This document shows positions 1,404-40,200 of a DNA stretch of 46,465 nt, in pieces. A model generated the notes under the pieces. That model saw only the letters and a list, made by a program, of their open reading frames with translations, did not search any database and was not told the DNA's origin. A program made the position numbers and the translations under genes. This stretch comes from an uncultured virus (IMG/VR IMGVR_UViG_2061766007_001087). Its lineage: Duplodnaviria; Heunggongvirae; Uroviricota; Caudoviricetes; Schitoviridae. The stretch lies in the IMG/VR virus record IMGVR_UViG_2061766007_001087; one strand, 5' to 3'. Every line of letters starts with the position of its first letter. Position 1 is the first letter of the stretch.

Positions 1404-2921
1404 TTACGTATCTAAATCGTGTTTAGTTAAAATTGAATAGGTAGTACCGTCTATCTTGGCTCTTAACCTAGATGGGTATAAACCAGTATTAGAAGCTAAT
1501 AAGTAATATAGATTGTTATTACGCTTTACATTAAGTTTTCTATGCCATACAGTAGGATACCCACTATATATGCTGATAGAACCTAATTTATATAAAGTTA
1601 AATCATGAGAACCATGATAAAAGCTAAAAGAGCAATCAGTACTTAAACGTAAATCATCCTGATTAAAGTCACCTGTATATCTTAAATTATTATTAATAAA
1701 TACTTTACAGACTACTCTTCTTTTTATTGGTTTAAACTCAAGATAAATAGTAAATTTATATGGAGTATCTAATTCAATATTAAATGCTTNNNNNNNNNNN
1801 NNNNNNNTGGTACAAAATACCCGTAAACTAAAATAAGAAGGTCTTTTTAATGGAGGATTATCTGGAGTTATATCAATTAAATAAAACATATAATTAGGTA
1901 CATCATACTCTNNNNNNNNNNNNNNNNNNNNNNNNNNNNNAAATTCAAGGCATAGTCTATTTTCTGAATTAGCTAGATTAAAATAATCAGTATTAGATGT
2001 TTTTATCCACATACTTGTACCATGCCCAGATGCATCATATGCTGATAATTTTTCATATACATAATCTTGAAAAAATTCATCATAATGAAAAGAGTAATAT
2101 CTACTTGGGTTAGAACCTCCATNNNNNNNNNNNNNNNNNNNNNNNNATTCAGTTATTAAATTTGGATTATACTGATCTGGTATAAGATATTGATTATAAG
2201 GATCACTATCAGCATCCATTAAAGTAGGGGTTATATCACCATCCACAATACCCTTAAAACTAATCTTTGCTTTAATACCAGATGCAAAATCATCTGGTAA
2301 TGGTGAATACGCTTTTAATATTTCATTTCCTGCATGAATCAAAATAGTGCTAAAACTGGTTATATTAGTTTTANNNNNNNNNNNNNNNNNNNNNNNNAGA
2401 ATTATCAGTAGTATCACCTAATACTGTTAAATCAGTTATTACAGTAACATTGGAGTTAGCACTTGTTCTAATTTCAGAATCTATACGTAAAATATAATAT
2501 GTAAAATTATTTGAAGTATCTACCCATAAACCAAACTTACAATGATGCCATTCATTATAATCAACTCTTATAACTATTGGTCTAGATTGATTACAATTNN
2601 NNNNNNNNNNNNNNNNNNNNNNNNNNNNNNNNNNNNAGCAGAAGATGATTTATTTAAACTAATTATTGGCATATAAGAACCAGAATAAGTAGTTGCTTTA
2701 AAATCAAATTCTAGATAAATATCATTTCCTGCAATTAGAGGTATTTCTGGGTAATAGAAATAATAACCAGTACTGGTATTATTTACTGCATGTAATGAAT
2801 AATCATCTAATTCACTATCATATACAAATGTAGTATCACTTCTTCCTTCTCCAGAATAAGTACCTACTCTTGGAGTAAGACTATTCTGTAAGGGTATATC
2901 AAGTACTGTTACTTCACTCAT
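1404..2921 (-). CDS. Putative receptor-binding/tail protein with beta-rich (LamG/concanavalin-like) domains
   Basis: Track ORFs 2574..2948 and 1404..2417 join across N-runs (linking frame NCNQSRPIVIRVDYNEWHHCKFGLWVD...). Start MSEVTVLDIPL at 2921 overlaps the upstream stop. Aromatic, beta-strand-rich composition and tail-module position. The fold is inferred. Confidence 0.55.
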
Positions 2922-3990
2922 TTGATTCACACCATATTTCAGTACCATCAGGTAATACTAAATGTCCCTGAGAATTATATCTAGGTATCTTACCTGCTTC
3001 ATTTGCTACTTCAGAAGTTTCTACATAATCAGACATATCTGGTAAATCAGAAGAAGTAAGGAAGTTAGATGAATAATTAGCTAAAGTACTTTCAAAGTTA
3101 CCTGTAGTAATTAAATCAGAGATATTAAATAATACTTTATTACCAGCACATACGTAATTCATCCCACTATAAGGATTTGTATATCCTAAAGGTTGATAAG
3201 GCAAAAGATAAGATATTTTTTCATAATCACCTGTAGGAGAAGGTATATCTATCTGATAGAAGGAAGTAGTACCNNNNNNNNNNNNNNNNNNNNNNNNNNG
3301 TGATTCAATTAAATCAGTACTAATTAATTCACTTGCATCTCCAGTAACTACATTCTCTGGTAACTCAACAGGTGTACTAGGAGTACTTGGTTGTATACTG
3401 GAAGATTCACCAGAACCTCCGGTAACTACAGTAGAATTGATTGCAGGAAGAATCTCAGTAAATGTTTGTTCNNNNNNNNNNNNNNNNNNNNNNNNNNNTA
3501 CTGTAGTTGCATCTACTACAAATATATTATTACTATCTACAGTAATTTCTCGAGAAATGTTTCTATCTTTGGAGTAAACCTTAAATTTACTGATATCTCT
3601 TATCTTAGGTAACAGGAATGTATATACCAGATAACTTACTGTACCATCTTGATTTGGTACTTCTATCGTATCTTTATAATAGAATCTGGTATAACTGAAG
3701 TCTCCCATAATATGGGTAGCAAGTATCTGCATATCTTTAATACTTCTTGGGCTATATCCCAGTGTATCCAGATACTCTTCTCTGAAAGATATGCCATAGT
3801 AGTTACTGCATTTAAATGCATTAGTAAAAAACTCTGGTTTCTTGTCCAGAGCATACAGCATATCTCTTAAATTCATTAACTCAGGTAATCTCTGATATAC
3901 CTCTTCCACAATAGCAAAAGCCGTATTAGGAAGGTGATGGTGTACCAAATTAGAGAAACCTGTTACTGATGGTATAGGCATTATATCCAA
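2914..3990 (-). CDS. Putative tail/virion protein
   Basis: 358-aa ORF coupled to both neighbours, with an S/T/P-rich linker. It occupies the position of tail genes downstream of the gp67-like gene in N4-like phages. Confidence 0.5.
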   Translation of the reverse strand: MDIMPIPSVTGFSNLVHHHLPNTAFAIVEEVYQRLPELMNLRDMLYALDKKPEFFTNAFKCSNYYGISFREEYLDTLGYSPRSIKDMQILATHIMGDFSYTRFYYKDTIEVPNQDGTVSYLVYTFLLPKIRDISKFKVYSKDRNISREITVDSNNIFVVDATTVXXXXXXXXXEQTFTEILPAINSTVVTGGSGESSSIQPSTPSTPVELPENVVTGDASELISTDLIESXXXXXXXXXGTTSFYQIDIPSPTGDYEKISYLLPYQPLGYTNPYSGMNYVCAGNKVLFNISDLITTGNFESTLANYSSNFLTSSDLPDMSDYVETSEVANEAGKIPRYNSQGHLVLPDGTEIWCESNE

Positions 3991-4672: not shown

Positions 4673-6249
4673 CTATACAATGTATGAATCTAGTGGGGAT
4701 ACTTCATTATATACATAAGAATCTGTTATATCAAAGCAATTATTTTCATAATTTGCAGTGAGTTCTACAGCAGCTTCTGGTTTATACATCTGATTATACA
4801 TATCACCCAGCATAGATATAGTATCTATAGCATCATCATGTTTGCTCTTAAACCCGGCAGCAGAGATTAAACTAAGTTCATTTACAATCTCTACTACTCT
4901 TGGGTCTTCTTTGTACTCAACAGGGAAATACACCTTATTTAACTTAAACCAAGGTAAGACTACATTGAATCTGGTTAACTTATCTTTAACTGGTCTAATA
5001 CCTACTGTATTACCTGTTTTAGCTAAATTAAAGTATATATTTCTTTGTACCATTAAATCAATAATGGTAGATACAAATCCTCCCTGTTGACCAGTAATTT
5101 CTATACCAACAAGTAGTGGTCTATACATCTGTACGAACATGAATAAATCATCATAGTTCTTATTCATATACTGACGTTTAACTATACCATCTACCCAGAA
5201 GAAATCACCATTACAGGAGTATGCCCATACACTAATTACAGAATAATCTGCAGAGTCTTNNNNNNNNNNNNNNNNNNNNNNNNNNNNNNNNNNNTAGTAA
5301 TATAGAAATTATAGTTATCTTTTCTTGGAAGAAGGGTAGTACGTTTATACCACATAATATCTGCATCACTAACGAGTCTATCTTCTTCTGACATAATTCG
5401 GAGCATAAGTTCCTGGTTAAAAGAATTGATAGCTCCGAGTCGCATTGCTTCATTGTACTGTCTTTGTACATATTCATATGGAAATCTATCCTCCCAGGAA
5501 CCTCTAAACTCTTCCTTGGTACAAGGAAACTTCTCACATATCGGGTATACATTTACATTATATACACCGGATTCTACTGCCTTATATAACGGGTCTTTCT
5601 TATTAAATGGGGTACCATTCCATATAATCTTACTATGAGGATGCATAGCATATTTAACTGCTTTATTTAAAGTATCCTCTATAGATTTAAGTACCAATGC
5701 ACTTCGTGCATCTTCATCAGACAGTAAATCATCCAGTATCAATAACTGAGGTCTGGTACCTAATTTCTTAGTACCACGAATACCGGTTTTAGCACCGAAT
5801 GCATCTACTACAAAGTGTTTACCATCGGCATTGGTAAACTCCCAACTAGTTTCAGTAAACTTAACTTGAGGTAAGTATTTCTTAAGGAATGGTGAATTAT
5901 TATATCTAANNNNNNNNNNNNNNNNNNNNNNNNNNNNNNNNNNNNNNNNNNNNNNNNNNNNNNNNNNAATCTCACCAAAGTTAGGTAACTCATTAAAGCA
6001 GGCTATATACAGGAAGAAGTATTCTCCGAAGACGGTAGTCTTGGCTATACCCCGGTGACAGAGATTAGCAGTATTACCCTCCTTAACTACATTATCCAAC
6101 ATGTGATAATGTACTATAGGAGTTTTATTCTCTTCTCCTTCCGGACNNNNNNNNNNNNNNNNNNNNNNNNNNNNNNNNNNNNNNNNNNNNNNNNNNNNNN
6201 NNNNNNNNNNNTCAGATAAGTATTCATCTACTGTTTTACTCTCGTTCAT
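4673..6249 (-). CDS. terL: Terminase large subunit (N4 gp68-like)
   Basis: Walker A-like HRGIAKTT, GIRGTK, Walker B LLILDD, WNGTPF and nuclease KHDDAIDTISML. The two track ORFs join across the N-run at about 5260-5294 (DSADYSVISVWAYSCNGDFFWVDG...). Confidence 0.93.
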
Positions 6250-6977: not shown

Positions 6978-7071
6978 CGGGGTTTTCAAAATTCTTAGGG
7001 AATATTTTTAATTTTTGTGTGAAGGTAATGTAACTGATTACTGAACAAGATAGGGGGATACCCCCCCCCCT

Positions 7072-7089
7072 ATTAAAATTTCTCGGTAG
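7072..7089 (+). promoter_or_regulatory. Phage promoter-like motif copy 1
   Basis: ATTAAAATTTCTCGGTAG, overlapped by the hairpin CTCGGTAGT-ATTC-ACTACCGAG (7082-7103). Confidence 0.7.
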
Positions 7090-7116
7090 TATTCACTACC
7101 GAGGAGGGAACAAGCC

Positions 7117-7203
7117 ATGATGTGGGCTTTCTTAATAATCATCGTTCTGAAGTTCGGCAAGCGTCTAGTAGACATACTAGACAAACTTGTCAGCGAGAAG
7201 TAA
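7117..7203 (+). CDS. 28-aa hydrophobic peptide, first early ORF
   Basis: MMWAFLIIIVLKFGKRLVDILDKLVSEK*, with SD GAGGAGG, lying between a promoter motif and a terminator. Confidence 0.65.
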   Translation: MMWAFLIIIVLKFGKRLVDILDKLVSEK

Positions 7204-7210
7204 GAACTTT

Positions 7211-7235
7211 AGGGAGCAAATGCTCCCTTTTTTTT
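7211..7235 (+). terminator. Rho-independent terminator
   Basis: AGGGAGC-AAAT-GCTCCCT followed by a T-run. Confidence 0.85.
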
Positions 7236-7971
7236 CAAACTCCAATACTTTCCCTTTATCCTCTATGATAGGGGAAGACAGAGTTTATCCCACTTTTTGG
7301 GTTATTCTCCTTATATCTTATTTGTGTATGAATACCTATATCCTCACAATAAACTAATTGATTAAATTAACCCTGCTTCGCTTAAGGGTTAATNNNNNNN
7401 NNNNNNNNNNNNNNNNNNNNNNNNNNNNNNNNNNNNNNNNNNNNNNNNNNNNNNNNNNNNNNNNNNNNNNNNNNNNNNNNNNNNNNNNNNNNNNNNNNNN
7501 NNNNNNNNNNNNNNNNNNNNNNNNNNNNNNNNNNNNNNNNNNNNNNNNNNNNNNNNNNNNNNNNNNNNNNNNNNNNNNNNNNNNNNNNNNNNNNNNNNNN
7601 NNNNNNNNNNNNNNNNNNNNNNNNNNNNNNNNNNNNNNNNNNNNNNNNNNNNNNNNNNNNNNNNNNNNNNNNNNNNNNNNNNNNNNNNNNNNNNNNNNNN
7701 NNNNNNNNNNNNNNNNNNNNNNNNNNNNNNNNNNNNNNNNNNNNNNNNNNNNNNNNNNNNNNNNNNNNNNNNNNNNNNNNNNNNNNNNNNNNNNNNNNNN
7801 NNNNNNNNNNNNNNNNNNNNNNNNNNNNNNNNNNNNNNNNNNNNNNNCATCATATTCGACGGTCCTGTAGAGGACTGGTTCGATGATGACGACGAATAAT
7901 CATTGAACCAGTTTGCAGTTATCGCTCTGCGTTACCAAAAGCGTGTTCATTAATTTAATAGGAGTATTATT

Positions 7972-8215
7972 ATGCGTGACTTCATATTTGATAATTTTGA
8001 GGAGGAAGAAAAAGATGCTCTCCTCAATAATGTTTCAGTTGTTAAACCAACTGANNNNNNNNNNNNNNNNNNNTGAAGAAAAATATGTTGAATCAGTCAG
8101 TTTGGATAAACTAACTGACGAACAGCAAGACAAACTTTTCACCGTGTTAGGTGAGGGTTTGAATAAGATTCTCAAGGGTCTCGCCAGTTTTGACGATGAC
8201 GATATTCCATTCTAA
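7972..8215 (+). CDS. Small acidic early protein with SSB-Ct-like tail (FDDDDIPF)
   Basis: AGGAG SD then ATG at 7972 (MRDFIFDNFEEEEKDALLNN...). Joins across an N-run to ...KGLASFDDDDIPF*. Confidence 0.75.
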
Positions 8216-8263
8216 ATGTAGCAGGCATCGGTATATCCGTGTAAGTCCTGCTACATTTTTTTT
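8214..8263 (+). repeat. UAAGY-bulged hairpin copy 1 (terminator-like)
   Basis: AAATGTAGCAGG-CA-t-CGG-tatat-CCG-TG-TAAGT-CCTGCTACATTT followed by a T-run. Confidence 0.8.
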
Positions 8264-8329
8264 AATCTTTTGGTAAGTAAATAGTAGTAAGGCTAACATC
8301 ATGCTTGATACATTCTACTTACCATCAGC

Positions 8330-8347
8330 AATAAAATTTCTCGGTAG
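8330..8347 (+). promoter_or_regulatory. Phage promoter-like motif copy 2
   Basis: AATAAAATTTCTCGGTAG. Confidence 0.75.
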
Positions 8348-8672
8348 AAACAGGTCCTCGTTTAGCGACGCGAGAATAAATAATGTTGCCATCGTAGACA
8401 GTTTGAGTTGGCATTCTGATACAAAAATGCTAACACCGATTCCGCTACGGGATATTAGCGGACGTCGTTCGGTAACATTGCGACGTTATAGACAAAAGTT
8501 ACCTACCCTAGACAACGCTGAGGGCGAACTGCAACGTCTAGGTTAGTGAAAACCGGTTTTCCTGATGTTTCCGGATACAAAAAACGACGTCCCGCTCAGT
8601 TTAATGGCATTGCTGAGTGATTGAGCAAAAACCATTCGTCTTTGGCACCTAGACGTAAAAATAAGGTGTACC
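8348..8672 (+). ncRNA. Candidate large structured non-coding RNA (3' end probably in the N-run 8673-8739)
   Basis: No SD-led ORF. At least seven helices, a 10-bp long-range closing helix (8460-8469/8583-8592) and two tandem H-type pseudoknots. Flanked by promoter motifs at 8330 and 8757. Confidence 0.7.
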
Positions 8673-8756
8673 NNNNNNNNNNNNNNNNNNNNNNNNNNNN
8701 NNNNNNNNNNNNNNNNNNNNNNNNNNNNNNNNNNNNNNNTTCATTACTTGAGAGAA

Positions 8757-8774
8757 AATAAACTTTCTTCATAG
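8757..8774 (+). promoter_or_regulatory. Phage promoter-like motif copy 3
   Basis: AATAAACTTTCTTCATAG followed by the hairpin GAGGTTGCTA-GAGA-TAGCAACTTC. Confidence 0.65.
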
Positions 8775-8830
8775 GCGAGGTTGCTAGAGATAGCAACTTC
8801 ATATGTTAATTTATTTTTATGGAGGTCGCT

Positions 8831-9200
8831 ATGACTACAATTTATACATCTTATTACACAAATATACGTAATTTAAATGCTGACTACTATAGAGTCAGCA
8901 TCTCNNNNNNNNNNNNNNNNTGTAGTAGATGAAAGGGTGCAATTACTTGCACCACCTGCTCATACATTATGGGCACATAAGAATGGGCAGATAAATAATG
9001 CTCAATATACAGAACAGTACATTGAGCATTTAAATGCTCACCATGAACAAGTCATTGAAGTCATGAGACAAATATGGCGAAATGCACATGGTCGGAACAT
9101 TGTGCTCTTATGCTGGGAGAGCAAATCGAAATTCTGCCACCGTCACCTGTTTGCTGATTGGTTCTATCGGCAAACAGGATACCGAATTGAGGAACTGTAA
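8831..9200 (+). CDS. DUF488-family protein
   Basis: GGAGG SD and ATG at 8831 (MTTIYTSYYTNIRNLNADYYRVSIS). Joins across the N-run to LLAPP...IVLLCWESKSKFCHRHLFADW, carrying the LLCxE...CHR signature of DUF488. Confidence 0.8.
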
Positions 9201-9203
9201 GGT

Positions 9204-9236
9204 GGGTGCTAGTAGTGAAACATTCTACTAGCACTC
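9204..9236 (+). terminator. Strong 3' stem-loop after the DUF488 gene
   Basis: GGGTGCTAGTAG-tgaaacatt-CTACTAGCACTC. No U-tract. Confidence 0.5.
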
Positions 9237-9239
9237 AAC

Positions 9240-9257
9240 AATAAAATTTCTCAGTAG
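9240..9257 (+). promoter_or_regulatory. Phage promoter-like motif copy 4
   Basis: AATAAAATTTCTCAGTAG. Confidence 0.75.
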
Positions 9258-9314
9258 TGCAAGATAGTTCTCGCACTTCAACATTTATTCACTAACAGCC
9301 ATAGGGAGGCTATC

Positions 9315-9521
9315 ATGAAATTTATCATCACTTTTCAAATTGCTGATGACTTTGCTGAACAGATTTCTTACCACAGCGTAGTCTGTGATGAAGAAGAAGT
9401 AAATTCTGTTCAGCAAAAGATGATGAGCGATTATGCTCCATTCATCGAGGTTCTGTCTGTTACCCCATACGAGGGTCCAGACGACAGTGATTATGAAGAC
9501 GACGAAGCAATCCCGTTCTAA
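9315..9521 (+). CDS. Small acidic early protein with SSB-Ct-like tail (EDDEAIPF)
   Basis: 68 aa, GGGAGG SD, ends DDSDYEDDEAIPF*. Confidence 0.8.
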   Translation: MKFIITFQIADDFAEQISYHSVVCDEEEVNSVQQKMMSDYAPFIEVLSVTPYEGPDDSDYEDDEAIPF

Positions 9522-9530
9522 GTCGTCTTC

Positions 9531-9563
9531 TGCAGGCATTGTTCCATACATGTAAGTCCTGCA
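9531..9563 (+). repeat. UAAGY-bulged hairpin copy 2
   Basis: TGCAGG-CA-t-TGT-tccat-ACA-TG-TAAGT-CCTGCA. Confidence 0.8.
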
Positions 9564-9591
9564 TTGGTTTAATCTAATTAGGAGAAAAAAG

Positions 9592-9795
9592 ATGATTAGG
9601 TTCGAAAGTGCCCTCATTGTTCTGGGCAACAAACAAGTTAAAGTGCAGTTATGCCGTAATGTGGCATATCTGCAATATTCCAAAGATATTGTAGAAGAAG
9701 TCAATTTCGTAGAACTGGCTAAACTTCTACAGAATGTACAGGTTCTCAAGCACTCCAGAAGTTTCTGGAAAGTGCTTCAGAGCAGAGTACAGTAA
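9592..9795 (+). CDS. Hypothetical early protein
   Basis: 67 aa, AGGAG SD. Confidence 0.7.
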   Translation: MIRFESALIVLGNKQVKVQLCRNVAYLQYSKDIVEEVNFVELAKLLQNVQVLKHSRSFWKVLQSRVQ

Positions 9796-9797
9796 AT

Positions 9798-9836
9798 CCA
9801 GCAGGCACTTGTCGTGAGACATATAAGCCCTGCTGG
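9798..9836 (+). repeat. UAAGY-bulged hairpin copy 3
   Basis: CCAGCAGG-CAct-TGTC-gtga-GACA-ta-TAAGC-CCTGCTGG, followed by TACATTTTTT. Confidence 0.75.
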
Positions 9837-9891
9837 TACATTTTTTAAGTATGCAGTAGTTAGAATAGATACGCTCTGCATACATGGAAAG

Positions 9892-9909
9892 AATAAAATT
9901 TCTCCATAG
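9892..9909 (+). promoter_or_regulatory. Phage promoter-like motif copy 5
   Basis: AATAAAATTTCTCCATAG followed by the hairpin ACGGTTGTT...AGCAACCGT. Confidence 0.75.
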
Positions 9910-9972
9910 AAACGGTTGTTCACGATAGCAACCGTAATCCAACTTGTCACTTGCCTTAGGAGGGCTACAATT

Positions 9973-10307
9973 ATGTTAAACTCTATCCACGTTTTCGATA
10001 TTTTCTTCATCAACGCAGTTTCTGAGCAGGCTGAGGCTTGCGAACTTGAAACNNNNNNNNNNNNNNNNNNNNNNNNNNNNNNNNNNNAGACCTCTCTGAT
10101 GAAATTATTCGTGCTGAAACGGCTCGCATTGTTCGTCATGCAGTTTCTAGACTGCGTTCGACTGAGCAGAAAGTCATTATTGGCACACTCGCTGGTCTCC
10201 CACCAGAAGAGATTGCCCGTAGATGTGACATATCTACTGAGCGGGCAAAAATCGTCTGGCGGGAGGCCACGCTCAAGTTGAGGAGAGAACTTGAGCCGTT
10301 GCTCTAA
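9973..10307 (+). CDS. Small protein with a sigma70 region-4-like HTH domain
   Basis: ATG at 9973 with AGGAGG SD. After the N-run a different frame reads DLSDEIIRAETARIVRHAVSRLRSTEQKVIIGTLAGLPPEEIARRCDISTERAKIVWREATLKLRRELEPLL*, which fits the Sigma70_r4 pattern. Confidence 0.75.
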
Positions 10308-10313
10308 ATCTCC

Positions 10314-10345
10314 AGCAGGCATTGTGCAAACATGTAAGTCCTGCT
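10314..10345 (+). repeat. UAAGY-bulged hairpin copy 4
   Basis: AGCAGG-CA-t-TGT-gcaa-ACA-TG-TAAGT-CCTGCT. Confidence 0.8.
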
Positions 10346-10355
10346 TAAACCCAAC

Positions 10356-10373
10356 AATAAAACTTCTCAATAG
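10356..10373 (+). promoter_or_regulatory. Phage promoter-like motif copy 6
   Basis: AATAAAACTTCTCAATAG. Confidence 0.7.
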
Positions 10374-10402
10374 TATTTAACAATCTGCCATAGGAGGCAC
10401 TT

Positions 10403-10657
10403 ATGAACAACTTTTCAAATACTGCATTTACTTCTTTCGACCGTGACCCAGTAAAGGTTGAGGTTCACGCCCTCTTTGAAATAAGAGGTTGTGATGACGA
10501 AATGATTGAAACTTATTTCGTCACAACCCACATGGTAGTGGGTACCTGCTGGGACGACGAAGTACCACAGTTCCTTGAAGTTCTCCGTAAGAGAGTCGAA
10601 GAGGAATACAGGCACTACTACGCCTTCCTGCTGGAACATTGGGTGTTTCCAGCATAA
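10403..10657 (+). CDS. Hypothetical early protein
   Basis: 84 aa, AGGAGG SD, forms its own promoter-terminator unit. Confidence 0.8.
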   Translation: MNNFSNTAFTSFDRDPVKVEVHALFEIRGCDDEMIETYFVTTHMVVGTCWDDEVPQFLEVLRKRVEEEYRHYYAFLLEHWVFPA

Positions 10658-10674
10658 TAGAAAATAGCCCAGGC

Positions 10675-10713
10675 GGGAGTACTAGTCTTATGACTGGTGC
10701 TCCCTTGTTTTTT
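10675..10713 (+). terminator. Rho-independent terminator
   Basis: GGGAGTACTAGTC-ttat-GACTGGTGCTCCC-TTGTTTTTT. Confidence 0.8.
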
Positions 10714-10741
10714 CAAGTAAATGGAAAGAAAGTACATTTAC

Positions 10742-10759
10742 AATAAAATTTCTTCATAG
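10742..10759 (+). promoter_or_regulatory. Phage promoter-like motif copy 7
   Basis: AATAAAATTTCTTCATAG. Confidence 0.75.
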
Positions 10760-10789
10760 TATCAACTTAGCCTGTAGGAGGGCACAATT

Positions 10790-10999
10790 ATGAACGAATC
10801 AATTCAGTTTAAAGTTACTTCTATCGTTTACTTTAACGAAAAGTACAATAAGGGAGGAGAGTCCGAGACTTATGTTTTGCGTGGGTTCTGCACTCCCGAA
10901 GAAGTCACGAAAATCAGAGACTATGTCCTCGCTGAGAACTGGCGACAGTTCAGATACGAGGCAAAAGACATCAAGATTGTAAAAGTCGAGATTGTCTAA
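10790..10999 (+). CDS. Hypothetical early protein
   Basis: 69 aa, AGGAGG SD. Confidence 0.8.
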   Translation: MNESIQFKVTSIVYFNEKYNKGGESETYVLRGFCTPEEVTKIRDYVLAENWRQFRYEAKDIKIVKVEIV

Positions 11000-11004
11000 C
11001 CTCG

Positions 11005-11040
11005 GGCAGGTGGTGCCAGTGTGTACTGCCTGCCTTTTTT
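11005..11040 (+). terminator. Rho-independent terminator
   Basis: GGCAGGTGGTGC-cagtgt-GTACTGCCTGCC-TTTTTT. Confidence 0.8.
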
Positions 11041-11045
11041 CAGCG

Positions 11046-11063
11046 AATAAAATTTCTCGATAG
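11046..11063 (+). promoter_or_regulatory. Phage promoter-like motif copy 8
   Basis: AATAAAATTTCTCGATAG. Confidence 0.75.
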
Positions 11064-11098
11064 ACCAACATTTATCAACTAACCAAAGGAGTTCTATT

Positions 11099-11242
11099 AT
11101 GAAACATATTTACATAATCACTGGTCGTCATTACGGAGAGTCCGAGTACTCATACGTAATGTACGAAGGTACATACCTCGAGGCATGCTCATACGCTGAG
11201 TGGGAGTTCGACGATGTAAAAGCGGTTGAACTACTCATCTAA
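11099..11242 (+). CDS. 47-aa acidic early protein
   Basis: AAGGAG SD; MKHIYIITGRHYGESEYSYVMYEGTYLEACSYAEWEFDDVKAVELLI*. Too short for the ORF track. Confidence 0.75.
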   Translation: MKHIYIITGRHYGESEYSYVMYEGTYLEACSYAEWEFDDVKAVELLI

Positions 11243-11311
11243 CAACCCACAGGGGCAGTAGTGTATGCTATCTGCCCCTTTAGCAACATTTTTTTAACCA
11301 AGGAGAATAGT

Positions 11312-11473
11312 ATGAACAAATATCGTGTTATTTATTTTAATTACGACTTCGACCTCGAAGAAGCATATATCTTCGGGGATACCGAAGAAGAAGCCCTGTA
11401 TAATGCAGGGATTCCAGAAACCGAGGTGTTCTCTATTGAGGAACTCGATGAAGACGAAGACGAGGAGGATTAA
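11312..11473 (+). CDS. 53-aa very acidic early protein
   Basis: AAGGAG SD; MNKYRVIYFNYDFDLEEAY...EELDEDEDEED*; followed by the hairpin GGGAAGTC-GAAA-GGCTTCCC. Confidence 0.8.
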   Translation: MNKYRVIYFNYDFDLEEAYIFGDTEEEALYNAGIPETEVFSIEELDEDEDEED

Positions 11474-11521
11474 TCGGTGGGAAGTCGAAAGGCTTCCCTT
11501 GTTTCTGCAAATCGGGAAACA

Positions 11522-11539
11522 AATAAAATTTCTCGATAG
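11522..11539 (+). promoter_or_regulatory. Phage promoter-like motif copy 9
   Basis: AATAAAATTTCTCGATAG followed by the hairpin GAGTGA-tagat-TCACTC. Confidence 0.75.
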
Positions 11540-11597
11540 AGTGATAGATTCACTCAAGTATTCAACATTCATCAACCAACCAAAAGGAGAAAAAAAA

Positions 11598-11800
11598 ATG
11601 ATGAACACTGAAAATACCCGCACTCTGTATACTGTCACTGGACTTGACACCGAGGGTTATCCAGACGCTTACAACGTTTGGGCAAATGACCCAGCCGACG
11701 CCANNNNNNNNNNNNNNNNNNNNNNNNNNNNNNNNNNNNNNNNNNNNNNNNNNNNNNNNNNNNNNNNNNNNNNNNNNNNNNNNNNNNNNNNNNNNNNNNN
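11598..11800 (+). CDS. Hypothetical early protein (3' end in N-run)
   Basis: AAGGAG SD; MMNTENTRTLYTVTGLDTEGYPDAYNVWANDPADA... Confidence 0.65.
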
Positions 11801-11847
11801 CAGGAGGCTCCCCAATTTTTTTCCCTAGTGCAAAGAGAGAAAGACTA

Positions 11848-11865
11848 AATAAAATTTCTCAATAG
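11848..11865 (+). promoter_or_regulatory. Phage promoter-like motif copy 10
   Basis: AATAAAATTTCTCAATAG followed by the hairpin ACGTTGCTA-cttga-TAGCAGCGT. Confidence 0.75.
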
Positions 11866-11917
11866 AAACGTTGCTACTTGATAGCAGCGTACATCCACCC
11901 TTCAACAACGGAGTTCC

Positions 11918-12163
11918 ATGATGAAAATTCTCTACACAATTTCATGCCCTACATTCATTTTCCGTATCCTTCTTACCAAGGAAAACGGGCAGTTCGTTTA
12001 CTCAACTGAAGACGGGCAGACATACNNNNNNNNNNNNNNNNNNNAGGAAGATTTTATCCTCCTTCTTGCACTCTTCGGAAAAGCCTATTCCGGTGCAGGC
12101 TATTACGAGAATTACGGAAATTCAACCAGAATTAAGTTCAATATCACAAAGGAGACTCTATGA
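11918..12163 (+). CDS. Hypothetical early protein
   Basis: 81 aa, GGAG SD. Confidence 0.7.
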   Translation: MMKILYTISCPTFIFRILLTKENGQFVYSTEDGQTYXXXXXXXEDFILLLALFGKAYSGAGYYENYGNSTRIKFNITKETL

Positions 12164-12432
12164 TGAACAGAAACAATTTAATCCGCTACCACGTTGTATT
12201 CGACGCAACCGAGGAAAGGCATAACTGCTACTTTCCAGTCGACTTCCTTATTGAAAGGACAGAACAAGGTACTATCATTTACGACACGCTTGAGAAACCG
12301 GTTCTAATCACCAAAACAGCAATTACCGAAGAGTATCTCAAACTCGTGGCTAACTACCTGTTTTGCAGAGAATTTAAACGAACTTACAACATGATTCCAA
12401 AAATCATAAAGTTCGACTGTTACGATGAATAA
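12160..12432 (+). CDS. Hypothetical early protein
   Basis: 90 aa, AAGGAG SD, ATGA overlap with the upstream gene. Confidence 0.75.
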   Translation: MMNRNNLIRYHVVFDATEERHNCYFPVDFLIERTEQGTIIYDTLEKPVLITKTAITEEYLKLVANYLFCREFKRTYNMIPKIIKFDCYDE

Positions 12433-12570
12433 TCTATACGGCAGAGACAGGAGGCTCNNNNNNNNNNNNNNNNNNNNNNNNNNNNNNNNNNNNNNNNNNN
12501 NNNNNNNNNNNNNNNNNNNNNNNNNNNNNNNNNNNNNNNNNNNNNNNNNNNNNNNNNNNNNNNNNNNNNN

Positions 12571-12774
12571 GACATTGTCGTAATCCCAGTAATGGACCCA
12601 GGAACTTATGACGAGGTGTACTGGGTTGTGTTTCCTACAGAACTCTACGGTCTGGTAACTGAACGCTACGACCCATCTGACCTTCTTACCCTTAAGGGAT
12701 TCATCAAGGCTTACCTGTACGGTGAATATCCAGATGTCCTCTGGATTGCCCTAGACGAAGAGGCAAACGACTAA
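12571..12774 (+). CDS. Hypothetical early protein (start probably in N-run)
   Basis: Frame is open from the edge of the N-run (DIVVIPVMDPGTYDEV...) and followed by a hairpin. Confidence 0.6.
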   Translation, partial: DIVVIPVMDPGTYDEVYWVVFPTELYGLVTERYDPSDLLTLKGFIKAYLYGEYPDVLWIALDEEAND

Positions 12775-12825
12775 TAACCAACCCCAGGGCAGGAGAAATC
12801 CTGTCCTTTAACATTGGAGAAAACA

Positions 12826-13017
12826 ATGAAAGCAACAATTTTAACAATTCTTTTTATCTTTGGTTCAGTCCTCTATATGGCTCATTACGCTTTAAGCCTT
12901 CCAGAAGTTGAGTTTAGTTACTCAACCAAAAAGTGTGTAAAAGTGATAGACGCAGACGGTGGAGTACACTCATGTAAGCATCTGCCAAAAAAGTTCTATC
13001 ACGTCTGGGTTAAGTAA
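12826..13017 (+). CDS. Small membrane-anchored protein
   Basis: GGAG SD; N-terminal hydrophobic helix MKATILTILFIFGSVLYMAHYAL; Cys pair in the soluble part. Confidence 0.7.
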   Translation: MKATILTILFIFGSVLYMAHYALSLPEVEFSYSTKKCVKVIDADGGVHSCKHLPKKFYHVWVK

Positions 13018-13082
13018 ATACAAGGAGGGTACTCATTGAGTACTCTCTNNNNNNNNNNNNNNNNNNNNNNNNNNNNNNNGCA

Positions 13083-13100
13083 AATAAAATTTCTAGATAG
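13083..13100 (+). promoter_or_regulatory. Phage promoter-like motif copy 11 (upstream of the gp2-like and RNAP II genes)
   Basis: AATAAAATTTCTAGATAG, overlapping the hairpin TAGATAGAT-agtaa-ATCTATCTA. Confidence 0.7.
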
Positions 13101-13149
13101 ATAGTAAATCTATCTACGTTTAACTTTTCACAATATGAGGATAAATTCT

Positions 13150-13620
13150 ATGAACGTATTTACTAATGCTTCTAACAATAATAACAAGGGTAACTTTATT
13201 GATGGTATGCTGTATGTCAAAGACTTGACTACTGGTGAGACTCGTTGCATTGGCTCAGTCTATACCCGTTCTCCAGTTGCTGAAGTTACTGCTTTGTTAA
13301 ACGCAGTTAACGCACACCCAGATAAACTCGGATTAGTGTTCGAAGACCGTAGAAGTAACATCAGTGCTAACTCCTTTCTGGGTCAGGTGATTGCTTCTGC
13401 TAAACCACAGCAGGTAGCACAGCCACAGTATGTCGTAGCACCACAGCCAGTAATTCAGCCATCAGCACAGACTGTTATGCCAATGGTACAGGTACAGCAA
13501 CAGCCTATGCCACAGGCTGTAGTACCACCACAGCAGAATGCTGGAATGCCACTGGGTGGTCAGCCAGTTCAGCAACAGCAGGTGCTTCAGCCTGTAACTC
13601 CTGATGAAGTTCCATTCTAA
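13150..13620 (+). CDS. Candidate N4 gp2/Drc-like ssDNA-binding protein with Q/P-rich linker and DEVPF tail
   Basis: GAGG SD before ATG at 13150. N-rich start, a short beta-rich domain, a long Q/P/V linker and the ending TPDEVPF*. Located upstream of RNAP II like gp2/Drc. Homology is inferred. Confidence 0.5.
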   Translation: MNVFTNASNNNNKGNFIDGMLYVKDLTTGETRCIGSVYTRSPVAEVTALLNAVNAHPDKLGLVFEDRRSNISANSFLGQVIASAKPQQVAQPQYVVAPQPVIQPSAQTVMPMVQVQQQPMPQAVVPPQQNAGMPLGGQPVQQQQVLQPVTPDEVPF

Positions 13621-14233: not shown

Positions 14234-15115
14234 ATGAAACAGCAAGAAATGGAAATGCTCTATGCAGAAAATAACATGACTCATCTTCTGGATACTTATA
14301 TTTCAGATGAGTACATGGATTATTTAATACAGCGATTAAAGATAGTAATGGTTGCTGATTCTGAGAAACCTTTTAAGAGAGAGTGCATAGATTTAATTAT
14401 CAAAAACTGCAATCCAAGAAAGGTATTTAAGAAAATGATTACTCCATTTATCTTAAAAGATAAAGTAATCCTCCAAGAGATAGTAAGTAAAGTATTTCCA
14501 ATCTTTGGTAATGCTACTACCAAGCATAGACAAGGTATATGTGTAGACTGTTTTCTTACTGCTCTATTAGATGGTAATTACTTTAGCATTACTCAGACTT
14601 CAGAAGAGTACTTTGTTACTACTATTATTGATTTTACAAGTCTCAGAACTGCTGCACAGAATATGGGATTTGTACTCCCTTCTATTGAACCACTGGAACC
14701 AGTAGATAACAGACACATTGGATATAAAACATTCAGTGAATCTATTATTTGTGGTTCCAAGAATAATCCATTGGATTATGAAAAATGCTTTTCTCATATC
14801 AATAGAGAGAATAGAACAAAACTATGCTGGGATGATAGAGTACTGAAACTTTCTCCTCTTACATTTGNNNNNNNNNNNNNNNNNNNNNNNNNNNNNNNNN
14901 NNNNNNNNNNNNNNNNNNNNNNATTAATAATAGATTTAAACAGTTTGAATTACTAAAACAGAGTATTCCAGATAAGGTAAGTAAACTGGACGGAAATGAA
15001 TTTTACATTGCACACAAATATGATAAACGAGGCAGGTGCTACTGCAAAGCACATGAGTTTNNNNNNNNNNNNNNNNNNNNNNNNNNNNNNNNNNNNNNNN
15101 NNNNNNNNNNNNNNN
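14234..15115 (+). CDS. RNA polymerase II subunit 1 (N4 gp15-like)
   Basis: MKQQEMEMLY start and LPSIEPLEPV. After an N-run a different frame gives HKYDKRGRCYC (DxRGR motif). End lies in an N-run. Confidence 0.85.
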
Positions 15116-15119
15116 GAAA

Positions 15120-16380
15120 ATGATTAATTTTGAACCAATCGAATGGGCATTTATTGAGACTGCTAATCAGTTAGGTTTTGATAAGAAACCTTTTCAGGAG
15201 AGAATAAAGATAGGTTCAGATATATTTGAGGAAATTAAGAAATACGGAGTAGAGAAAACTTATTTCAAGTATAACCCAGATGAACCTCAGTTATTTGCAA
15301 GAGCATTAATCGGATTGGGAGATATTGCAAATGGTAAGCCTACCAATATGCTTGTAGGACTAGATGTTACTTCATCCGGACCACAAAATGGTGAAGTAGG
15401 TTCAAGAGATTCTACAGGTCTTGCAATTACTGGTGCAATAGATTTAATAGTAAATGGAGTTACTATAGTACCAGATGTATATACTGAAATAGAGAATAAA
15501 CTCAGACCAGTAGGTGTACCAAAACTAAGTAGAAAAATGGTAAAAGAAGCAGTTATTCCATATGTATATGGCTCTACTGATGCACCGAAATCTTTGTTTG
15601 GTAAGTTCTATAAACACTTTAAGGAGGCATTCTTCCAGACAATTCCTGGTTCAGATTCGTTTAAAAACTTATTAATAGATGCATGGCAGGACGACTGTAT
15701 GCTCTATAAATGGGAATTACCAGACGGATTTGTTGCTACTACTGTACCAGAAAAGAATATAGAATTCCGGTTACAGTTATTAGGAAATCACTCATATACA
15801 TATGTATCCAAGGAACCATCTCCATTGGAGAAAGGAGACCTGCATACAAAGGCATTATCAGCAAATGTATTTCACGCATTTGACGGATTTATGCTTAGAG
15901 AGGTACATCGTATANNNNNNNNNNNNNNNNNNNNNNNNNNNNNNNNNNNNNNNNNNNNNNNNNNNNNNNNNNNNNNNNNNNNNNNNNNNNNNNNNNNNNN
16001 NNAGGTTCCAATGGAAGAGCAGAACATCTGGAACAGTTGTACTGGAAATTCAAATTCTTTAGTTTTGAAATTCTGGAAGTTATCCAGTTAAATATAGGAA
16101 ATATCTCAGAAGAGTATATCAATGTATGCTTACAGCAAATTGAATATCTGTTATCTAAGNNNNNNNNNNNNNNNNATTCATGATGAGTTTATGTGTTCTC
16201 CACTTAACTGTAATGTTATGAAGCAGGTATACAATAATCTTCTGGGTGCTTTGTATTGTTCTGACTGGTTCCGTATAGTAATTAACGAATTGAGAAATGA
16301 CAATTTAGCAGATAAGTATGTAGAACCAATAAACTGGGATATTTATAACAAAATCATAANNNNNNNNNNNNNNNNNNNNN
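15120..16380 (+). CDS. RNA polymerase II subunit 2 (N4 gp16-like)
   Basis: ANQLGFDK..F.ERI, motif A GLDVTSSGPQ, motif B RKMVKEAVIPYVYGS, ANVFHAFDG and motif C IHDEF (about 16176). End lies in an N-run. Confidence 0.92.
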
Positions 16381-21650: not shown

Positions 21651-21725
21651 AGGGGTGTGGTGTAATGGAAGTCACTACAGGTTTTGATCCTGTCAGATAA
21701 GGTTCGAGTCCTTACACCCCTGCCA
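21651..21725 (+). tRNA. tRNA-Gln(UUG)
   Basis: Acceptor AGGGGTG/CACCCCT + GCCA; anticodon arm ACAGG-TTTTGAT-CCTGT; T arm TAAGG-TTCGAGT-CCTTA. Confidence 0.95.
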
Positions 21726-21816: not shown

Positions 21817-21901
21817 GCCCGTATGGTGAAATTAGTAAACACAAGGGACTTAAAATCCCTCGGATAAATCCTTATCAGTGCAAGTCTGATTACGGGCACC
21901 A
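21817..21901 (+). tRNA. tRNA-Leu(UAA)
   Basis: Acceptor GCCCGTA/TACGGGC + ACCA; anticodon arm AGGGA-CTTAAAA-TCCCT; long variable arm; T arm ATCAG-TGCAAGT-CTGAT. Confidence 0.93.
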
Positions 21902-31070: not shown

Positions 31071-31317
31071 AGACTCAGATATTGAGGCACTGAAGCAGGA
31101 GAATGAGGACTTAAAAACTCAAATCCTGCTTTTAAAGTCTCAGAATAATTGCACTAAGATAATCTTGGATAAAGCCTGGAAATTGTTGGAAACACATAGA
31201 CAGGAATTAAACAAGGTTATTGATATGCTTACTCCTGGTACTCCAGCTAATCTTAAGTATATGAAAATTAAACTGGAAGAAGTACAGAAAGAAATACTAC
31301 AGGAAATAAAGAAATGA
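31060..31317 (+). CDS. Hypothetical coiled-coil protein
   Basis: 85 aa, coupled ORF. Confidence 0.55.
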   Translation: MKSKDSDIEALKQENEDLKTQILLLKSQNNCTKIILDKAWKLLETHRQELNKVIDMLTPGTPANLKYMKIKLEEVQKEILQEIKK

Positions 31318-37203: not shown

Positions 37204-40200
37204 TTACCAAGGTAAATTACTAAACCAAGCAAAGAATTTAAATGCTGGTAACTGGTTACTAGAATCAAATACCGAAGTAATAGGGTTCTTAATGTTATAT
37301 AAGTTCTTATCTATATTTAGTAGATTAGATGTAAGTATTGCACCATCCGTTAATGGTNNNNNNNNNNNNNNNNNNNTGCTCTAGCAAACTTTCTAGTAAA
37401 CAAATGCAGTATAGGCATTTGAGTTCTTAATATGAACTTACTAAACCAAACTACACCTAAGTCATTAGCTGCCTGTGTAACTTTATTAGTTGGCAGGTCA
37501 TAGTTAATAAACATCTCCTGTGCATCCAGGAATGCATTAGTAGCATTCTGTTCATTGATTCTACGATCTCTGCTTTGTGGATACTTCTTTTCTCTCAGAT
37601 GAGTGTAGTATATCCATTTAGCTACTGTATCCGTACCTGTAGCAAGCTCCTGTGCCATGTCATATAGTTTAGTATTATGACGTATAAAGAGTACATCCAG
37701 TATAGGAGTTAAGCGTCTAAATACACCTGCATCCATTCTACTATTATCCAGGAATTTAAGTTCATCTGGTAATGGAGAAGGCTCTTCTCTGTTAATATCA
37801 TACTCACCACCTACTATAGAAGTAGCACCACCTAATCTAATAAATTCACTCATTGGGTTATTCTGTATATCATTTTGCAATGAAGTAAATTCACTTCTTA
37901 ATGCTGCTCTTTCATCTGCAGTTAATTCTTCTATATTTAGTCTAGTAAGTATATTACGGAATCTCCTCATTTTATCATTGTAGTCAGTGTAGTATTCGTA
38001 TCCTTTAAGTGTTTGTGATATAGCCTTTATTGGGCTAACTCCAGCAATAGACAATACTTGAATATTACTTCTTATATTGTTAAGAGATACTATAAAAGAT
38101 TTATTTACNNNNNNNNNNNNNNNNNNNNNNTTGCCTGTGTACGTAATCCCCACTTTTGTGCAAATATCTGATATGCAGCTTTTTTCAGGATATGTAAGCA
38201 TCTATCTCCATAGGCTTTATATTCCTCTGTACCTGGGTCCATCAGTCTTCTAAGAGAGAAGTTATGGAAACCAAATATAAGATTATAATAGTCTTTCTTT
38301 ATAAATAGATGTTCACCACCTAATCTTTCATGCAGGTACTTTCTAGTATCTTGTGGTAAAGTACTGTAGTCTTCCTGTACTACTGGATTCTCTGAATCTG
38401 GTGAAAGTTCAATCCATTCATCTTCATCATAGTCTTTATCAGTTCTGTGATTATGAATATCTATTAATGCATCAATCATGTTTCTATTGGCTGCAAAGGA
38501 AACTTGTTTTTCTTCAATGTTTGCTGCAGTTGCTGCAAGANNNNNNNNNNNNNNNTTTAATAGTTTTTCTCTCAGTTCCATTGAGTCTACAAATCTGATT
38601 GCCTTTGTTACACCTTTAGAATCAAATCCCAATTCACGGGCAAGTGATTTATTTGGAGTAATAGGTAATATAGTATCAAACTGGTTATCAATAGGAACTG
38701 CAGCCATATAGTTTTCTACTGCTTCTTTTTCACTGATTAACTCTGCACCAACAAAGTGAGTATCAATAGTAGCCAGTGCACCAGAAGTATGCCTATTAAC
38801 TACTGGTACTGAATTGTGCATAAGTTTAGGTGTAAATCCTAGTTTATTAGGTACAAATCCTGCTGTCTCTGGACCAGTATATACTACATATCCTTTTTGT
38901 TTTAAATCTTCATATGTAGCTTCATCATTTACTATTATTGATTCATNNNNNNNNNNNNNNNNNNNNNNNNNNNNNNNNNNNNNNNNNNNNNNNNNNNNNN
39001 NNNNNNNNNNNNNNNNNNNNNNNNNNNNNNNNNNNNNNNNNNNNNNNNNNNNNNNTGAATCAAAACCAGTAGATTTATGAGCTGCTCTCATAGCAGCAGC
39101 ATTAGTTTCTACTCGATAGAGTTCCTGTAGAGTTTGTAAATCTTCCTGGTTTGCTTCCTGCTCTCTGTATAATTTCATTGCCTGTAAGGTAATATAGGCA
39201 TTTAACTGAGATTCTACTTGAGCCTGTTCTTCCGGTGAAGAATGCTTAAGTAATACTCCGTTGTATTCTGTACCAAAACCTAGAAGAATCTGAGCAGCAT
39301 TATGTAATGTTATCTCATTACTCCAGGAATCAGTAGCCAGTTTACATGCAAGGTTGTTTGCAGCATTAATTACAAAGTTAGTATAGTTACTCGGTAATTC
39401 AGGTATATTTAATATAGGATTATTTACTACTGCATCATTATAGTACCGTAAAGTATCATCTAAACCTACTCCAGTAGTAAGCATACTCATTATCTGTTGG
39501 TTATTGTAACCTACATTTTTTAAGCACTGTAAATCAAGTATACATACACCATTTCTAATTGCTCTTGCCATTGGTTCAGTAAGTTTATTAGCAAATGAAC
39601 CTAAAAGAACTCTAGTATCTTCAGTCAGATTTTGCTGTCTGGTTCTATTAAGAGCAGANNNNNNNNNNNNNNNNNNNNNNNNNNNNNNNNNCTTCCATCT
39701 TTAGAGTAGTAAGAGTTAGTTACTTCATTTAAGGTTTCCCTAGTAAACCTATTAACCTTCTTTAATACTCTTTCTAAACGATGTCCAAATGCCTGTACTC
39801 TTTGTGCAACAGGTTCTCTTCCTATTTCATCCAGATGCATAGATACACCAGTATCAGTAGTATCTAAAGTTCTATCTAATACTGTAGATAATCTATCTAT
39901 TGTTTGTCTATATGGAATTTGGAAGTAATCTTTTTCAGTCTTGTTTGCTGCATCAAATACTGCTTCTACTGTATCCATTAAACTAGGAGTTACATTAACT
40001 GTATTCCGTTTAAATTTATTAGATGCTTTTTGTAATAAAGTAGATATAGCAGTTGAAATGAAATCTATAAGAGCACCAAGTACACTTCGAGCAGTATCTT
40101 TATCATTTACATTGGTTAAATGACCTTTTACATATGGAACTTGACTTAATGCATTATTAATAAATTCATTGGTATATGCCAGTACTGCAAACTCTTCTAT

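Follow-up and report, generated by a model that had tools for sequence, protein, structure and literature searches.

The DNA of an uncultured virus of the Schitoviridae (IMG/VR record IMGVR_UViG_2061766007_001087), 46,465 nucleotides (nt) long, is analysed here as "the window", a term that always means the full stretch, parts of which are masked by 74 runs of N. Its PHROGs matches identify it as an N4-like podovirus. A region of plus-strand genes (7000-13100), flanked by the terminase side of the genome and the RNAPII genes, is the counterpart of the early region on the N4 map, and within it lie four copies of one asymmetric stem-loop that ends small early gene units. The genes concerned, all on the plus strand, are a small ORFan of 66 amino acids (aa) that ends at copy 1 (8015..8215), a small acidic ORFan of 68 aa that ends before copy 2 (9315..9521), a small ORFan of 67 aa between copies 2 and 3 that has no promoter-like box of its own (9592..9795), and a gene ending before copy 4, of which the 3′ part is visible and the start is masked by an N-run (10089..10307).

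The exact pattern GCAGGCA-N(6-25)-TAAGYCCTGC matches the window four times, always on the plus strand; in 100 dinucleotide shuffles the mean number of matches was 0.00 and none reached four. The copies stand where an initial annotation of this DNA had reported them. All four are sense-oriented and lie 0-9 nt 3′ of a TAA codon, in agreement with the distance of about 10 nt from a stop codon given there. Copy 1 (8216..8256, +; core 8221-8251) directly abuts the TAA at 8213-8215 and has the outer stem ATGTA/TACAT and the upper stem CGG/CCG; a run of eight T residues (8256-8263, +) directly 3′ of the stem gives it, together with the stem, a terminator-like shape. Copy 3 (9796..9838, +; core 9801-9833) lies 2 nt 3′ of the TAA at 9793-9795, the stem being counted from 9798, and has the outer stem CCA/TGG plus GTA/TAC, the upper stem TGTC/GACA and the TAAGC variant; six T residues (9841-9846, +) follow 3′ of its extended stem, and the tail TACATTTTTT is common to copies 1 and 3. 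Copy 2 (9531..9563, +; core 9532-9562), of the form T-GCAGG...CCTGC-A with the upper stem TGT/ACA, is located 9 nt 3′ of the TAA at 9519-9521 and 29 nt 5′ of the ATG at 9592, with neither a U-run nor a promoter-like box after it. Copy 4 (10314..10345, +; core 10315-10344), of the form A-GCAGG...CCTGC-T with the upper stem TGT/ACA, lies 6 nt 3′ of the TAA at 10305-10307; it also has no U-run, and a promoter-like box begins 10 nt downstream. The initial annotation had thus rightly described U-tracts in two copies only (copies 1 and 3) and two GNRA loops, namely GTGA in copy 3 and GCAA in copy 4.

The lower stem, the CA and the G-UAAGY segment are invariant in all four copies, about 20 positions in total, whereas the upper stem and loop are variable, with compensatory changes. 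The lower stem is 10-12 base pairs (bp) long in copies 1 and 3 and 6 bp long in the other two. When the four copies themselves are used to build a covariance model, as the initial annotation had proposed, the model recovers copies 1, 2, 3 and 4 at 54.2, 54.4, 41.8 and 51.9 bits, respectively; the next-best match, at 16.0 bits, lies in coding sequence, within a coiled-coil open reading frame (ORF) (31090-31134). No fifth copy was found in the unmasked sequence of the window, of which the 74 N-runs could hide others. A search of the whole window against Rfam release 15 at the gathering threshold returned only two tRNA genes (21651-21722 and 21817-21898; 53.6 and 54.8 bits), and a search of 8150-10420 at E values up to 10 returned six weak matches, none of them on a hairpin; the element was therefore rightly described as not assignable to an Rfam family.

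The structure proposed in the initial annotation is paired in 83.1% of cells, compared with 27-43% when the partner column is slid, and 6 of its 15 pairs are changed on both sides, a number equalled in 1 of 500 shuffles. The outer stems also differ in sequence between copies and retain their pairing. The covariation that had been claimed is present, although with four sequences it is indicative only. In RNA, copy 1 folds with -19.6 kcal/mol (z -5.38) and copy 3 with -19.3 kcal/mol (z -3.82). The bulge reported on the 3′ side is a different matter. In the RNA minimum-energy folds, UAAGY is unpaired in copies 1 and 3, whereas its AGU pairs with AUU in copies 2 and 4, as it also does in RNAalifold; with DNA parameters, UAAGY is a 5-nt bulge in the minimum-energy fold of copies 1, 2 and 4. 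The constant features of the element are its asymmetry and its sequence, and only the unpaired state, the "bulge" proper, depends on the folding model.

The hairpin belongs to a composite spacer, in which the order of parts is stop codon, GCAGG hairpin, an optional TACA with U-run and second hairpin, a promoter-like box, a leader hairpin, a Shine-Dalgarno (SD) sequence and ATG. The box, AATAAAATTTCTCnRTAG in a 22-nt family, is present in 11 copies, all on the plus strand within 7069-13101 (starts at 7072, 8330, 8757, 9240, 9892, 10356, 10742, 11046, 11522, 11848 and 13083). Each is located 40-70 nt 5′ of a strong SD and ATG, usually with a leader hairpin directly after it. The spacers of copies 1 and 3 (8213-8352 and 9793-9914) can be aligned from stop codon to box over 142 columns with a mean identity of 78%, the aligned parts being the hairpin, TACAT with the T-run, a TAAGTA..AGTAGT stretch, the second hairpin and the box. 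In the copy 1 spacer, the second hairpin (8272..8323, +; GGTAAGTA...TACTTACC) ends 6 nt before the closing box (8330..8347, +; AATAAAATTTCTCGGTAG); in the copy 3 spacer, it (9849..9883, +; GTATGCAG...CTGCATAC) ends 8 nt before the box (9892..9909, +; AATAAAATTTCTCCATAG). Copy 4 represents the short form of the spacer, in which the hairpin is followed after 10 nt by the box (10356..10373, +; AATAAAACTTCTCAATAG). The spacers of copies 1, 3 and 4 all run from stop codon through hairpin and box to a GGAGG-type SD and ATG. Copy 2 consists of the hairpin only, and the genes around it, located in the box-free interval between 9240 and 9892, share one box.

Plain terminators, each a GC stem followed by a T-run, occur at gene ends nearby (7211, 10675, 11004 and 11479). 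Hairpins at gene ends are therefore the rule in this region, and the GCAGG hairpins are one class among them. Leader hairpins are found directly behind the box at 7082-7103, 8780-8797, 9911-9931, 11872-11890 and 13096-13117. Three leader hairpins are built on GTTGC...GCAAC, the stem words of the hairpin of the first N4 early promoter, a likeness that may be a coincidence or a shared recognition element. Behind the box at 8330, about 330 nt (8347-8672) contain no SD-bearing ORF and run into an N-run; the only long ORF there (8301-8546) begins 5′ of the box, and the RNA fold of the stretch is shuffle-like (z -1.27).

One of the polymerases that the phage itself encodes probably uses the box as its promoter. 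The promoters of N4 RNAPII are minimal and AT-rich and extend from -7 to +2 according to excerpts of one report (PMC4496689), a description with which the AT-rich box agrees and into which it would fit. A scan of IMG/VR for the box gave 15 single matches, regarded as chance.

Since homology between the spacers of copies 1 and 3 extends beyond the hairpin to their full length, and the box families also share their flanks, the four copies could be leftovers of spacer duplication with no function beyond that of a hairpin, the core being identical through youth or gene conversion. We consider this distinctly unlikely. Selection for pairing is evident from the compensatory changes, which affect 6 of 15 pairs, and gene conversion would not fix the core and yet leave the upper stem variable. 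Moreover, copy 2 is unchanged in a related contig in which its flanks have diverged beyond alignment.

This last observation comes from contigs of four sequencing runs, aligned to 8921-10052 at 80% likeness or more. The related contigs are collinear with the window, from which their aligned parts differ by about 12%. Run X3 contains a contig of 227 nt that is identical to the window at 32 of 32 nt over 9531-9562, that is, over hairpin 2, but 93 letters before the hairpin and 76 after it do not align; the stretch preceding the hairpin ends in a stop codon after an acidic ...DDDKVPF tail. In runs X4 and X5, the alignment stops at 9290 in one and at 9259 in the other and resumes exactly at 9531 in both, with 212 other letters in place of 240 in the window and 279 in place of 271, respectively. 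The X4 and X5 breaks fall just after the box at 9240, and the gene at 9315-9521 is not aligned there at 80% or more. Hairpin 2 is a sharp-edged island of conservation, and the proposal of a conserved element at gene 3′ ends is supported. A shuffled gene order in the related contigs was considered and dropped, because the additional alignments at 9235-9257 are these contigs' own copy of the 8330 box and the order is collinear.

The hairpin is thus a real and moderately new stem-loop component of a repeated terminator/promoter spacer. As to its function, we give an even chance to the reading that it is a gene-end RNA stem-loop in a composite spacer resembling the PeSLs (promoter-early stem-loops) of T4-type phages, in which the long form terminates transcription and the short form is read through. 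The long form, represented by copies 1 and 3 with their long lower stem and U-run, would end transcription as an intrinsic terminator. The short form, represented by copies 2 and 4, would be passed by the polymerase and would at most cause pausing or attenuation, besides shielding the upstream message at its 3′ end. Each single ORFan gene would be set apart by the spacers as an expression unit of its own, and the repetition of the spacers would provide homology for recombination as the PeSL cassettes do in T4-type phages. Because there is no box between the genes at 9315-9521 and 9592-9795, the polymerase must pass copy 2 if the second gene is expressed. With a U-run in only two of four copies, and with copy 2 inside a two-gene unit that shares one box, the core common to all copies is not itself a terminator, and the earlier statement that the element is more than a terminator can be upheld. 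Action as RNA, termination or attenuation, use of the box by a polymerase and a role in recombination are all inferred.

Several points weigh against this reading. Copies 2 and 4 taken alone fold weakly, both as RNA (z -0.57 and -2.44) and as DNA (z -1.04 and -0.66), which makes a stabilising role for them doubtful. The stems contain no G-U pairs, so that the sequence cannot discriminate between folding of RNA and of single-stranded DNA. The box has no -35/-10 pair, and a sigma-70 scan found 18 sites where 14.6 were expected, which leaves the analogy with PeSLs incomplete; gene swapping and mini-circles are known for PeSLs, whereas here the likeness rests on the layout of the spacer. The replaced stretches in the related contigs are similar in length to those of the window, and the X3 stretch ends in a ...VPF tail, so that diverged orthologues are possible instead of swapped genes. 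Repeat families of this kind are absent from the early region of the closest named relative, Erwinia phage S6, so that the trait belongs to this lineage and not to N4-like phages in general. Termination, read-through and the presence of transcript 3′ ends at the hairpins are inferred in the same way. Finally, the invariant core and the lopsided 3′ side are explained by neither termination nor recombination and point to a sequence-specific reader.

Such a reader is the central element of another explanation, in which the core is a sequence-specific RNA binding site for a phage or host protein and the variable upper stem only holds the shape; regulators, processing nucleases and factors for termination or antitermination would all qualify. 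This would account for a core that is invariant in four of four copies below an upper stem and loop that change with compensation, for its presence both with and without a U-run, so that termination does not explain its conservation, for the identity of hairpin 2 between unalignable flanks, and for the near-copy of hairpin 3 in an unrelated phage that is described below. We nevertheless regard it as rather unlikely. No candidate RNA-binding protein is found among the neighbours, of which 2 of 13 have a Pfam match, and no known RNA three-dimensional motif or Rfam family fits. With only four copies, the roughly 20 invariant positions could reflect recent duplication, and in IMG/VR the reversed control of the pattern is about as frequent as the pattern itself.

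In that collection the strict pattern matched 25 loci with 30 matches, compared with 21 loci and 21 matches for the reversed control. Intergenic-looking matches made up 7 of 19 unique strict matches and 1 of 12 in the control (Fisher p = 0.086), and loci with several copies numbered 3 of 25 and 0 of 21, respectively (p = 0.15). A motif widespread among phages is rejected as a general claim, because the excess over the reversed control is not significant. A loose pattern scan of IMG/VR gave at least 120 loci, with 87 unique matches among those listed, most of which fall in open frames. About ten of the listed matches, in T4-like phages, represent one locus between rIII and 30.9 and were treated as chance. 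In one contig (G005), a hairpin shares with copy 3 the upper stem and the loop, the parts that vary. It scores 8 over the inner segment; over the 87 unique matches among those listed the mean is -4.44 (sd 3.11) and the next best is 2, and this near-copy of hairpin 3 is the only match beyond chance. In this fragment of an unrelated phage, the hairpin has a phosphoesterase gene on one side and on the other lies directly before a short ORF of 113 aa (14824-15231, minus strand) that has a NUMOD4 motif (E 1.5e-15) and no match to a nuclease domain, and that is likely the remnant of a homing endonuclease gene.

The near-copy bears on a further proposal, namely that a specific factor recognises the core (GCAGG-CA ... 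G-UAAGY-CCUGC) as a portable hairpin, which moves between unrelated phages at the edges of small cassettes. The factor would be, for example, a T7-family polymerase of the phage, for which the hairpin would be a pause or termination signal, a nuclease or a binding protein, and the G005 hairpin beside the NUMOD4 ORF would be one such transfer. We judge this proposal unlikely. The arrangement behind stop codons is the same in contigs of five unrelated phages (G001, G002, G003, G004 and L172), a likeness that is suggestive but was chosen by the pattern itself, with homology unproven. A search of five other contigs with the covariance model yielded no additional copies. In G002 (2543-3377), three copies of the short-form core stand behind small ORFs, of a type present in two contigs, and a separate hairpin with a T-run lies 10 nt downstream of the third; in G001 (963-1480), two short-form core copies stand behind small ORFs. 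These copies carry conserved flanks of their own (TAACC...ACAAA in G002 and AGAAACC... in G001).

Elsewhere, a pattern scan of metagenomes gave nine single matches, none of them related. In bacterial genomes, one for each of 185,579 species, 17 loci were found with one match apiece, mostly in coding sequence, and no multi-copy family; the element is therefore not a host REP. A Lapillicoccus contig from a metagenome-assembled genome contains, at about 270-400, a head-to-tail tandem repeat of a 30-nt unit, AGCAGGCA..AAGCCCTGCTGTG, that is unrelated to the phage element. In the literature, the core 11-mer was found only within unrelated primers, and no paper was found that treats rumen Schitoviridae, N4-like phages and intergenic terminators together.

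Apart from these readings, the element might act as DNA, either as a template-strand hairpin promoter for the injected virion RNA polymerase or as a single-strand recombination site. All four copies are located in the early region of an N4-like genome; their stem pairs are all Watson-Crick, and the bulged fold is the DNA minimum in copies 1, 2 and 4. The N4-like early promoters that form DNA hairpins mix conserved and covarying stem bases in excerpts of one report (PMC4496689), as the copies do. The three early promoters of N4, read from its record, are GTTGCttcGCAAC, GAAGCtccGCTTC and GCTGCtccGCAGC, with 5-bp stems and 3-nt loops; on the coding strand they present a hairpin followed by TTTT or TTAT and then GG, which resembles copies 1 and 3 with their T-runs. 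Promoters of the same type are described for LUZ7 and LIT1 in excerpts of two reports (PMC9163698, PMC3715699). We think action as DNA very unlikely, however. In N4 and LUZ7, a stem of 4-7 bp is closed by a loop of 3 nt and keeps a fixed distance to the start, whereas the present element is two-tiered and asymmetric by 5 nt, with a second stem and 4-5 nt in the loop. The distance from its core to downstream words varies, TTAA beginning 1, 7, 11 and 12 nt beyond CCTGC in the copies. What comes after copy 1 is not a gene but a second hairpin and then the box. A canonical short hairpin stands, moreover, at the left edge of the region: GGGGGataCCCCC (7053-7065), located 6 nt 5′ of the first box, is the only intergenic hairpin there that combines a 5-bp stem with a 3-nt loop, and is a candidate promoter of the N4 type for the virion RNA polymerase. 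As regards recombination, no recombinase was found among the 26 larger ORFs (PHROGs, unmasked parts), and the attC core words are absent.

A processing site for RNase III, as in the early region of T7, would involve a single cut in the internal loop that leaves a protective 3′ hairpin. The two-tier shape, the asymmetric internal loop on the 3′ side and the position between early-region genes are those of the T7 sites, and this phage has T7-family polymerases. The helix is much shorter, however: copies 2 and 4 total about 11 bp, and copies 1 and 3 reach about 13-16 bp, whereas RNase III substrates require roughly two helical turns. The comparison with T7 drawn in the initial annotation is therefore not sustained, and processing by RNase III is extremely improbable.

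Among the 13 small proteins of the early region, Pfam matches were obtained for two. One is encoded by an early gene with a DUF488-N3a domain (8877-9200; E 2.3e-11); the other is the product of 10089-10307, with weak matches to sigma-70 region 4 (E about 1e-3) that lie under the Pfam cut-offs. The frame of 10089-10307 does not join the ORF from 9973 across a 35-nt N-run. The 8015-8215 protein has no Pfam match. Acidic C-terminal tails are found in the proteins of 8015-8215 (...DDDDIPF), 9315-9521 (...DDEAIPF) and 13150-13620 (...DEVPF), and the first two of these show no likeness beyond the tails. The C-terminal tip of bacterial SSB is DDDIPF, and the acidic tails may mimic it.

Among the PHROGs matches of the window are the large terminase (5236-6249, minus strand), both subunits of a T7-like RNAPII (14234-14956 and 15120-16091, plus strand), pieces of the giant virion RNA polymerase (37350-39571, minus strand), pieces of a DNA polymerase, a primase and SSB. 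A megablast search of the window against named phages gave no match; the ATPase is at most 47.6% identical to those of named phages, the top matches being N4-like phages of Erwinia and Pantoea. The small subunit of RNAPII has only two homologues in the protein collection, with 99% and 56% identity, and a search of IMG/VR with it gave no locus. The phage or its relatives are contained in runs labelled bovine or goat gut metagenome; no RNA run is listed among those that contain the stretch.

N4-like phages have been studied for their programme of three polymerases, and their signals outside N4 and LUZ7 are barely known. The window represents a lineage whose small early genes nearly all stand as single units, each between an AT-rich box and a gene-end hairpin. 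From it come testable candidates for the signals at which a divergent RNAPII, or the virion RNA polymerase, would start and would stop or pause. If the core is a specific recognition site, a small new RNA or DNA signal would be added to those known; otherwise the region is another example of a genome layout in a known style.

Copies 1 and 3, each with a stem of 10-12 bp and 6-8 U residues directly after a gene, are like intrinsic terminators, plain examples of which are found both in N4 and in the window. Two of the four copies are without a U-run, however, and the roughly 20 shared invariant positions and the lopsided 3′ side are unlike such terminators. Like attC sites and REP elements, the present hairpin is imperfect, stands just past stop codons in a constant orientation, and combines a conserved base with a variable top and additional nucleotides left unpaired on one side. 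The words of the attC core, RYYYAAC and GTTRRRY, do not occur in the four copies, no integrase was seen among the 26 larger ORFs, and, unlike attC and REP elements, the hairpin is kept in the related contigs while the stretch upstream of it changes.

The best match in kind for this spacer is the PeSL. PeSLs of T4-type phages are composite units of an upstream stop codon, a stem-loop, a promoter, an SD and a start codon, as described by Arbiol et al. in 2010 and Comeau et al. in 2014 (PMC2839356; PMC4122927). In the same reports, PeSLs are set among abundant ORFans, have demonstrated terminator and promoter activity and play a role in modular shuffling (PMC2839356; PMC4122927). The present spacer differs in that it stands in an N4-like genome, that its AT-rich, non-sigma-70 box is probably read by a phage polymerase and that its stem-loop has a fixed asymmetric core instead of a polyG/polyC stem-loop. 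It is like a PeSL in the repeated succession of stop codon, stem-loop, promoter-like box, SD and start codon between small ORFan early genes, in the placing of the stem-loop as a terminator or attenuator, and in the retention of the repeats while the genes between them diverge. With this spacer, the idea of the PeSL would be extended from the host-polymerase promoters of T4-type phages to a phage equipped with polymerases of its own.

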